DNA of 38,222 bases from a virus (taxonomy: Duplodnaviria; Heunggongvirae; Uroviricota; Caudoviricetes): positions 1 through 38,222 of IMG/VR virus record IMGVR_UViG_2703719347_000001. One strand, 5' to 3'. Both the position numbers and the translations under genes were made by a program. The first letter of the stretch is position 1, and each line of letters begins with the position of its first letter. Of the stretch, positions 34,253-35,063 are shown piece after piece. The notes below the pieces were generated by a model. The model was given only the letters and a program-made list of their open reading frames with translations. It searched no databases and was not told the origin of the DNA.

Positions 34253-34479
34253 GACCTCTCTTCTCTAACTAAGGCACCGAACTAAGAAAAGTTTGGTGTT
34301 TTCTCTTGCCATAATAACTAAGTTAAGTTAGATTTTATATCAAAGATAACGAACAGGCAGGACGCCCACGAAGTAGCCGCCTGGGGCATATGAAGTCCAG
34401 GATGATTCGTTAGCAACAAAAAAGCGCCCTACAGGACGCTTAGCTCTTTAACAATCTGGATATCCACAACAGTAGCAAT

Positions 34480-34971
34480 CTACAGATTGCCGTTAAGTTT
34501 TCTGGCCAACTCCTCAATGGATGGAGGCGATACGTAATCCGGATTTTTATTCATCAGAAACTTATTTTCACAGTGGAGGCACCTGCTTTTATGAAAAAGC
34601 TCATCTTCGCTAACCGGGAATGGTTGAAGTATCGATACTATCTTTTGTCCAAAACATTTTGGGCAAAGATGCATGGTTATGCTGTCACCGTTCACGATTA
34701 CCTCCTTCGAGTATACAAAAGTACCCGACTCAAGTTGGTTAAGGATATAGCCTTCCGTCTGAGCCTCAAAGTTTTCGAATTCTGCAATTTTAGCTTTGAG
34801 AGAAGCATTTATTTCTTGATAAGAGCCCAGCAGTTCAACGAGAGACACGCATTCGCGCTGAATAGACGCAAGCTTTGAGTTCAGCTCACCAATAGCCGCA
34901 TTTACTTCAGCTTGAGTTTTTGCCTCGTTCATTAGTTTTGCAATCTGGGCGATTTCACGAATAGCCGTCAT
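34480..34971 (-). CDS. Hypothetical coiled-coil plus C-terminal zinc-ribbon protein at the rex/sieB position
   Basis: About 163 aa from MTAIREIAQIAKLMNEAKTQAEVNAAIGELNSKL...; C-terminal CPKC...CLHC; AT-rich; convergent with cI. The N-terminal part of the track ORF (34972..35259) is probably not coding. Confidence 0.5.
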   Translation of the reverse strand: MTAIREIAQIAKLMNEAKTQAEVNAAIGELNSKLASIQRECVSLVELLGSYQEINASLKAKIAEFENFEAQTEGYILNQLESGTFVYSKEVIVNGDSITMHLCPKCFGQKIVSILQPFPVSEDELFHKSRCLHCENKFLMNKNPDYVSPPSIEELARKLNGNL

Positions 34972-35009
34972 TGCTGCCGTTAATTCAGCGATCACATTGA
35001 ATACTCTTA

Positions 35010-35063
35010 TTGTTGTTGGGGATATCCAGATTAACCGAATCCTTGTTGTTGGGGAATAACCAG
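35010..35063. repeat. Two direct repeats of about 20 bp (TTGTTGTTGGGGAWATMCCAG) upstream of the 34480..34971 gene
   Basis: ttgttgttggggatatccag at 35010-35029 and ttgttgttggggaataaccag at 35043-35063. Confidence 0.6.

Follow-up and report, generated by a model that had tools for sequence, protein, structure and literature searches.

A gene opposite the early-left operon of a lambda-like prophage probably encodes a divergent Rip1-family abortive-infection protein

Results

The locus and its minus-strand gene

The IMG/VR virus record IMGVR_UViG_2703719347_000001 (Caudoviricetes; 38,222 nucleotides, analysed over its whole length and called the window hereafter) carries a lambda-like prophage with Nu1 and gpA of a lambda-type terminase, a portal of the lambda family, an S24/helix-turn-helix cI repressor, a cro resembling that of P22 and a CII-like gene. 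We deal here with a single minus-strand gene located beyond cI, at positions 34480 to 34995, which starts with GTG, ends with TAG and probably encodes a divergent protein of the Rip1 (ring interacting pore 1) family. A first reading of the window, made from the letters alone and referred to as the sequence-only reading, had proposed at this place a defence gene of 163 codons running from ATG 34971 to TAG 34480. The open reading frame (ORF) is indeed present, but its product is probably 171 residues long: GTG 34995, located 24 nucleotides upstream of the ATG, is the most likely start because the eight additional residues are conserved, a Shine-Dalgarno sequence stands upstream and RefSeq annotates the same 516-nucleotide coding sequence. 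These eight residues (V/M-IAELTAA) are kept in every aligned homologue down to 26% identity; the Shine-Dalgarno-like AAGAG, as read from the sequence, lies 8 nucleotides before the GTG (35004 to 35008, minus strand) and its GAG core is conserved in alignments of the upstream regions of relatives, while the identical coding sequence is found in the RefSeq annotation of other E. coli genomes. Two further frames, a 259-residue ORF from TTG 35259 and a 101-residue antisense ORF at 34573-34878, find no support among homologues and were rejected as spurious.

The gene had been described as lying in a markedly AT-rich segment. The AT-richness is real but modest: the GC content of the gene is 0.428 against 0.53 for the window, which corresponds to the 8th percentile among segments of 516 nucleotides, and cI, with a GC content of 0.432, is equally AT-rich. 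The gene is convergent with cI, as first stated, with a pL-like promoter and a cI operator (34306-34334) between the two.

The product is homologous to Rip1

A profile built from 53 homologues matches PDB chain 9oox_L at E = 2.4e-28, the runner-up being at E = 0.04. The match is nearly full-length, since it spans profile positions 4-152 of 166 and chain residues 14-160 of 164, and the chain is "ring interacting pore 1 (Rip1)" of Escherichia phage HK446, the product of F846_gp37, complexed with the small terminase of T6. In pairwise BLASTP the window protein and HK446 Rip1 share 27% identity (E = 4e-11). Searching phage genomes by tblastn recovered relatives at 97% identity in PhiR49_1 and PhiR29_1, at 48% in Klebsiella phages, at 31% in HK620 (HkaP) and HK630, and at 30% in the Mu-like Pseudomonas phages JBD30, D3112 and DMS3; the reverse tblastn, with HK446 Rip1 as the query, recovers the same set of Pseudomonas and E. 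coli phages.

The fold agrees with this assignment. The AlphaFold (AF2) model computed from the 53-sequence alignment reaches a predicted local distance difference test (pLDDT) score of 90.6 and consists of helices 2-24 and 28-79 followed by a beta-rich C-terminal domain, and PDB 9oox likewise has long N-terminal helices followed by a beta-rich C-terminal domain. The helical N-terminal half and the CPKC...CLHC motif pointed out in the sequence-only reading are thus borne out: the four cysteines (C111, C114, C139 and C142 in the 171-residue numbering) are invariant in the sets of 19 and of 53 homologues and align with the C..C/C..C pairs of HK446 Rip1. In comparison with the latter, the window protein is shorter by about 10 N-terminal residues and carries an extra C-terminal tail of about 20 residues with a short helix. 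The homologues of the Pseudomonas casadabanviruses (JBD30 gp30, D3112 orf25 and DMS3) align at about 30% identity over about 88% of the length and are likewise single opposite-strand morons in a lytic operon; they differ from the window gene by their GC-rich context, which is devoid of the enterobacterial box-and-repeat leader described below.

The sequence-only reading had left the family unrecognised; it is Rip1, published in 2026, though Pfam, NCBIfam and PADLOC do not yet hold it. Searches of the window protein against these three libraries gave coiled-coil or zinc-ribbon noise only, and PADLOC yielded no significant model, the best match in PADLOC-DB v2 (2023) being a type I restriction enzyme model at noise level (E = 0.067, 8.5 bits); this library had been compiled before Rip1 was published. 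In PHROGs, the protein matches phrog_1244, labelled "unknown function", over its full length. The initial idea of a defence gene or moron is, on the other hand, supported by this clear sequence and fold homology to a prophage anti-phage protein of solved structure.

The family is large, with 3647 representatives at the 50%-identity level (E <= 1e-3), nearly all of 145-175 residues. The gene occurs in 650 of the 5426 complete genomes of E. coli, where it is annotated "hypothetical protein" throughout, and it is full-length in 645 of them. In comparison with relatives from O157, Salmonella and Citrobacter, the ratio of nonsynonymous to synonymous substitution rates (dN/dS) amounts to 0.17-0.27, which denotes purifying selection. 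One might consider the gene as a decaying or silent passenger without current function, on the grounds that the consensus of its promoter is weak, that many database entries are partial and that the annotation of a related genome treats part of the downstream pL region as a frameshifted pseudogene. Such a fate is very improbable in view of the intact frame, the low dN/dS, the invariance of the cysteines and core residues and the 645 full-length copies, and the partial entries sit on short contigs.

The gene occupies a sieB-like slot in the early-left operon

A promoter scan identified TTGCCA-17-TAGATT at 34306 to 34334 on the plus strand as a pL-like early-left promoter, which is overlapped by the cI-operator-like sequence CTAAGTTAAGTTAG at 34318-34331 on the same strand. 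The motif CTAAGN5TTAG of this operator occurs three times in the window, twice at OR (33541-33603, between cro and cI) and once at 34318-34331. Phage PhiR49_1, which carries the same gene (97% identity) and a different repressor, possesses a TTGACA-17-TAATGT promoter at the equivalent place; immediately past this promoter, its sequence becomes homologous to that of the window. Both the overlap with a cI operator and the promoter of PhiR49_1 at the same spot identify the promoter at 34306-34334 as pL. A transcript from this pL-like promoter would cross the rip1-like gene in antisense, towards yfdP/yfdQ/yfdR. Its leader contains a boxA consensus, GCTCTTTAACAA (34443 to 34454, plus strand), the single match in the window, which stands just before the junction where cargo genes are exchanged and within a leader segment (34344-34459) common to phages of differing immunity and cargo. 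A 6-bp hairpin is also seen in the pL leader at 34475-34490 on the plus strand, and the stretch of the window from pL to yfdP shows no N-like gene.

The slot is therefore that of sieB, inside the early-left operon and antisense to pL. The sequence-only reading had placed the gene at the rex or sieB position next to cI; the sieB half of that statement holds, but a slot like that of rexAB, which belongs to the cI operon upstream of OL, is ruled out by the promoter with a cI operator that intervenes between cI and the gene as well as by the presence of pL at the same spot in a phage with a different repressor. Like RexAB of lambda, an abortive-infection system that adjoins cI, is expressed in the lysogen and ends in the loss of membrane integrity, the window gene stands near the repressor; it differs in that rexA and rexB are two genes co-transcribed with cI, whereas the window gene is on the opposite strand, past the pL-like promoter and operator, and its product shows no sequence similarity to RexAB.

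The likeness to sieB of P22 and lambda goes further. It has the same slot and orientation, antisense in the early-left operon, and the module in front of it in P22, with a box, two direct repeats and a -10 position, is homologous to that of the window; SieB is a lysogen-expressed abortive or exclusion function, and we propose the same for the window gene. The proteins themselves are unrelated, SieB being a membrane protein of about 190 residues: PF14163 (SieB) finds no match in the window protein at E <= 10, and the PHROGs match is to phrog_1244 and not to the SieB phrogs. To our knowledge, an internal Esc start and a sas RNA are documented for sieB only.

The same orientation recurs among relatives, since the arrangement of a rip1-like gene opposite to a lytic operon was found in 9 other contexts. 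The genes of HK446 Rip1 and of HK620 and HK630 HkaP lie on the opposite strand between N and cIII/ral, antisense to pL; in contrast to HK446, where the gene stands between N and ral/cIII, the window gene directly follows the pL leader and no N gene is seen. A Salmonella copy (L013, positions 4001-4516; 74% identical) is located just downstream of cro, antisense in the pR operon, and this insertion on the other side of the immunity region implies that the cassette moves between early-left and early-right operons. The copies of Citrobacter, O157 and Cronobacter are antisense beside their own repressors, which is racR in O157 and Cronobacter, and those of Arsenophonus and JBD30 (gp30) are antisense and adjoin terminase genes. 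By its gene arrangement, as well as by a promoter-like module and a terminator of its own, the gene has the layout of an independent single prophage gene opposite lytic operons.

Tab (JBD26 gp31), a tail assembly blocker, offers another comparison, as a small prophage defence made of a single gene, which is encoded on the minus strand, has a promoter to itself and occupies the hotspot between small and large terminase genes where JBD30, DMS3 and D3112 carry their Rip1 homologue. It is nevertheless an unrelated protein of 83 residues, whose target is the tape measure protein and tail assembly, and it has a cognate anti-Tab gene, whereas no partner gene is seen beside the window gene.

At the right end of the window, the translation of an ORF at 37756-38166 (plus strand) looks like what we take to be orfA of an IS3-family (IS2-like) transposase. 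Should this reading hold, the prophage is broken by an insertion sequence at the point where one would expect the remainder of its early-left operon; related phages have further early-left genes, xis and int at the place of the putative orfA.

The upstream module resembles the sieB promoter of P22

Two direct repeats precede the gene. Their core TTGTTGTTGGGGA is exact at 35010-35022 and 35043-35055, with a spacing of 33 nucleotides. Read on the minus strand, which is that of the gene, the module comprises the conserved box GCCTGCTTTTAGCCACATCAGGCGAGGTGG (35066 to 35095), repeat 1 (35043 to 35062), a -10-like hexamer GTTAAT (35030 to 35035) between the repeats, and repeat 2 (CTGGATATCCCCAACAACAA, 35010 to 35029). 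The box, common to many unrelated morons including sieB, is matched once in the window for 0 matches expected by chance. All enterobacterial homologues, including those whose proteins are as little as 27% identical, are preceded by box, repeat 1, -10-like hexamer, repeat 2 and Shine-Dalgarno sequence in this order, the box taking the form TGCCTG(T)CTTTTNNCCACNTCAGGCNNNGTGG across these homologues. The two repeats co-vary across lineages (CCCCAACAACAA twice; CCCCAATCACCA with CCCCATTCACCA; CCCCTACAG twice), and those of HK446 and of the window gene are accordingly unlike in sequence (CCCCTACAG versus CCCCAACAACAA). A -10-like hexamer is kept at its position in relatives as GATAAT, TAAAAT or TAATAT, and as TGTGTATAAT in relatives from IMG/VR.

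The meaning of this module comes from P22, in whose record BK000583 both the promoter of sieB and the start of its RNA are annotated inside the same module, with the box also upstream of P22 sieB. In P22, the -35 coincides in part with repeat 1, the two repeats enclose the -10, and the RNA start is 1 nucleotide ahead of repeat 2. By this homology, we predict the promoter of the window gene at about 35028-35059, with repeat 1 overlapping its -35 position, and a transcript start at about 35022-35025, so that repeat 2 would begin at the transcript start and form the 5' untranslated region (5'UTR). The direct repeats noticed at the outset are thus real, conserved and co-varying; they had been taken for regulator binding sites, but judged from the alignment with P22 sieB they are core promoter and 5'UTR elements of a sieB-type promoter. 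The promoter of its own that the gene was expected to have finds support in this promoter-like module, homologous to the mapped promoter of P22 sieB, together with the gene's own terminator. No RNA structure is supported in the 110-nucleotide upstream region folded on either strand (z = +0.8 and +0.6), the equivalent in HK446 giving z = -2.0.

The gene is an exchangeable cargo bracketed by an inverted repeat

Downstream of the stop codon, an intrinsic terminator made of AAGCGUCC-UGUA-GGGCGCUU and a U run (34422 to 34441, minus strand) is conserved in the Salmonella and Citrobacter loci. It is directional, because the U.G pair formed on the minus strand corresponds to a C.A mismatch in a plus-strand transcript.

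The gene is bracketed by a 19-nucleotide inverted repeat, whose 3' arm (34453 to 34471) and 5' arm (35014 to 35032) are complementary at 18 of 19 positions, the 5' arm overlapping repeat 2 and the -10-like hexamer. The arms occur in only two copies in the window, against 0.02 expected, coincide with the junctions at which cargo is swapped and are conserved in the O157, Salmonella and Citrobacter relatives. At the one position that does not pair, the opposed bases are A.G or U.C, depending on the strand. The inverted repeat is restricted to the subgroup of 171-residue Rip1-like proteins and is imperfect with a 144-residue cargo in the same slot, which rules it out as a general feature of the box cassette; HK446 likewise differs from the window gene by having no inverted leader copy after the stop codon. 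The arms could serve for pairing between the 5' and 3' ends of the mRNA, could form a stem in the pL antisense transcript or could be a recombination scar.

The flanks 34200-34459 and 35012-35600 of the window are shared at 98-100% identity with vB_EcoM-689R6 and Kati, in which the cargo is swapped exactly between the arms, at 34460-35011. The swapped cargo (vB_EcoM-689R6, L001 2661-3328; Kati, L009) consists of a 144-residue minus-strand gene of phrog_5286, for which no Pfam or PADLOC match was found, and a plus-strand ORF of 68-73 residues. Yet other junctions and cargo occupy the slot in SfV and mEp460. As related phages have unrelated cargo in the same flanks, the rip1-like gene is dispensable for phage growth.

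This dispensability bears on the possibility that a Rip1 homologue was recruited to serve the resident phage itself, perhaps by modulating packaging or the timing of lysis through its zinc-ribbon domain, and plays no role in defence against other phages. An identity of 27-30% to proven Rip1 proteins, a divergent C-terminal half and an extra C-terminal tail would fit such a recruitment, as would the fact that some homologues adjoin lysis and terminase genes. We nonetheless consider it unlikely, since a gene of the phage's own programme is hardly expected to be replaced by unrelated cargo in the same flanks of close phages, to stand always opposite the lytic operons with its own promoter module and terminator, which is the signature of a lysogen-expressed accessory gene, or to recur in Rac-like and other prophage backgrounds when the resident terminase is of the lambda Nu1/gpA type.

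Between the rip1 cassette and yfdP, a GC-rich non-coding stretch (35107-35330, plus strand) gives a full-length match to the small RNA (sRNA) family STnc100 of Rfam at 40.3 bits (E = 5e-7), under the gathering score of 47; at gathering thresholds, nothing was found by Rfam in the whole window. The STnc100-like stretch ends in a terminator-like hairpin (GGTACCAG...CTGGTACC followed by T6), and a further hairpin with arms of 24 nucleotides lies at 35330-35416.

The box cassette across IMG/VR

Scanning IMG/VR for the box of about 30 nucleotides (GCCTG-N7/8-CCACNTCAGGCNNNGTGG) returned at least 120 loci (L022-L141). In these viral contigs the first ORF after the box falls into at least 33 protein clusters, that is unrelated families of small cargo. 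Among the matches listed, Rip1-like cargo is found 12 times by profile, plus a divergent protein at L078, SieB cargo at 10 loci (PF14163 and SieB phrogs), and a family of 144/148 residues, at 12 loci, is the commonest cargo other than Rip1; the other cargo listed belongs mostly to PHROGs of unknown function, without PADLOC match. Genes of phrog_5286, phrog_3311, phrog_8894 and phrog_3983 and one for a membrane protein of 106 residues are among the cargo behind the box. The L078 protein has 136 residues, a layout of a helix followed by CxxC...CxxC and a match to phrog_1244 at E = 3e-22, while the family profile misses it at E <= 1e-3; from these sequence features it is presumably a more divergent Rip1-like branch in a box cassette.

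Two classes of leaders follow the box. The first, to which the window belongs, has two co-varying direct repeats flanking the -10. The second, found elsewhere than in the window (L141, L098 and L128, for example), is shorter and has a -10 and a hairpin: the cargo begins 33-41 nucleotides past the box, the end of the box together with TATNCT makes an extended -10, and the hairpin that comes next shows many compensatory changes (CCUUAAAA/UUUUAAGG, UCUUGG/CCAAGA and GCUGG/CCAGC). By analogy with the mapped start of P22, the 5' arm of this hairpin may lie upstream of the sense transcript.

Discussion

The resemblance of the window protein to Rip1 in sequence, fold and gene context leads us to consider it, with a probability of roughly 0.8, as a divergent and previously unannotated member of the Rip1 family, hence as a single-protein, prophage-borne abortive-infection defence. 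Rip1 was reported by Patel et al. (2026, Nature 651:1060), whose work is known to us as summarised in PMC13434031. According to this summary, Rip1 is a prophage protein that is not toxic alone; escape mutations map to the portal in Pseudomonas phages, where the type thus differs from that of E. coli phages, in which they map to the small terminase; twelve Rip1 monomers encircle an 11-mer of the small terminase, the C-terminal half touching the ring and the N-terminal amphipathic helices making the pore; and the infected cell is permeabilised ahead of phage maturation. What the conference report PMC12908700 relates of Rip1 agrees with PMC13434031.

On this basis, a scheme may be drawn for the expression, trigger, pore formation and self-protection of the window protein, which we infer from the characterised members of the family and from the layout of the locus. 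In a lysogen, the rip1-like gene would be transcribed from its own weak sieB-type promoter, with a start near 35022-35025, as far as its own terminator, and the protein would idle in the cytoplasm. When an infecting phage makes a ring-shaped oligomeric protein late in its cycle, the C-terminal zinc-ribbon domain would bind around the ring, the trigger depending on the type of Rip1 (the small terminase for E. coli Rip1, the portal for Pseudomonas Rip1). Some twelve copies would then assemble, their N-terminal amphipathic helices would form a membrane pore, and the cell would be permeabilised before the progeny is complete. Because the gene is antisense inside the pL operon, the lytic transcription of the resident phage is expected to silence it, either by transcriptional interference or by a sas-like antisense RNA. 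In P22, sieB is controlled by sas, an antisense RNA of 105 nucleotides (Ranade and Poteete 1993, as cited in PMC12197685 and PMC7067206); sas is a precedent for antisense control in the sieB slot, and its extension to rip1 is made by analogy.

Several points weigh against the assignment to Rip1 and its mode of action. The mechanism of Rip1 comes to us through secondary sources, namely PMC13434031, PMC12908700 and the title of the PDB entry. The identity to characterised Rip1 proteins is 27-30% only; divergence affects the C-terminal half, through which Rip1 binds its trigger, and this half bears in addition the tail of about 20 residues. The window protein may thus respond to another trigger or to none. 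Amphipathicity at the N-terminus is no more than moderate: the hydrophobic moment reaches 0.36-0.52 in windows within residues 1-30 and is lower beyond, which is compatible with an amphipathic helix and is not diagnostic. The inferred promoter is a poor match to sigma-70 (GTTAAT, no recognisable -35) and was missed by the consensus scan. Finally, JBD30 gp30 was earlier credited with a different mechanism, being listed as one that "blocks phage genome injection" (Tsao 2018, as cited in PMC11445458).

This last attribution deserves attention, since it points to a superinfection exclusion at DNA entry, in which the genome injection is blocked and the cell is not killed. JBD30 gp30, of 164 residues and 30% identity to the window protein, is so listed in Appendix Table S1 of PMC11445458, and HkaP of HK620 is annotated "putative superinfection exclusion protein". 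The annotation of HkaP rested, however, on position alone, and what PMC13434031 and PMC12908700 report of the later work on the family, together with PDB 9oox, places the trigger late and the effect at the membrane. The window protein itself has no predicted membrane segment or signal sequence, its model consisting of helices and a soluble beta/zinc-ribbon domain. We therefore treat the attribution made for JBD30 gp30 as superseded by the Rip1 work and keep a block at DNA entry as a rival that has little chance of being correct. Coming back to a Rip1-type abortive infection, it is tempting to speculate that the 171-residue subfamily, which has its own C-terminal tail and its 19-nucleotide inverted repeat, may sense a ring-shaped trigger unlike that of HK446 Rip1.

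The box and its leader look like a portable promoter and leader of morons. The only cargo of known function found behind the box is SieB and Rip1, both of which are abortive-infection defences. It is thus conceivable, though we hold it as a tentative idea that may well prove wrong, that the box cassette is a regulatory device that keeps genes that are toxic when triggered on in the lysogen and off in the lytic cycle, and hence a signpost to defence genes still to be discovered; the off-switch, when the resident phage turns lytic, would be a sas-like antisense RNA or the read-through from pL or pR. A limited literature search, which is not proof of absence, found no paper on the box or on the hotspot of the sieB locus.

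As the family is already known, the finding is of moderate interest in itself, and of the leads opened here the shared box cassette most deserves to be pursued. The assignment fills an annotation gap, since roughly 12% of the complete E. coli genomes, O157:H7 among them, carry the gene under the label "hypothetical protein". It amounts to the prediction of an abortive-infection defence for these prophages, which bears on the host range of phages used in therapy and on the competition between prophages. The box and leader, common to sieB and to about 30 uncharacterised cargo families, provide an inexpensive handle at the DNA level in the search for defence morons in enterobacterial prophages, and the cassette offers a testable model of how prophages avoid triggering their own abortive systems.

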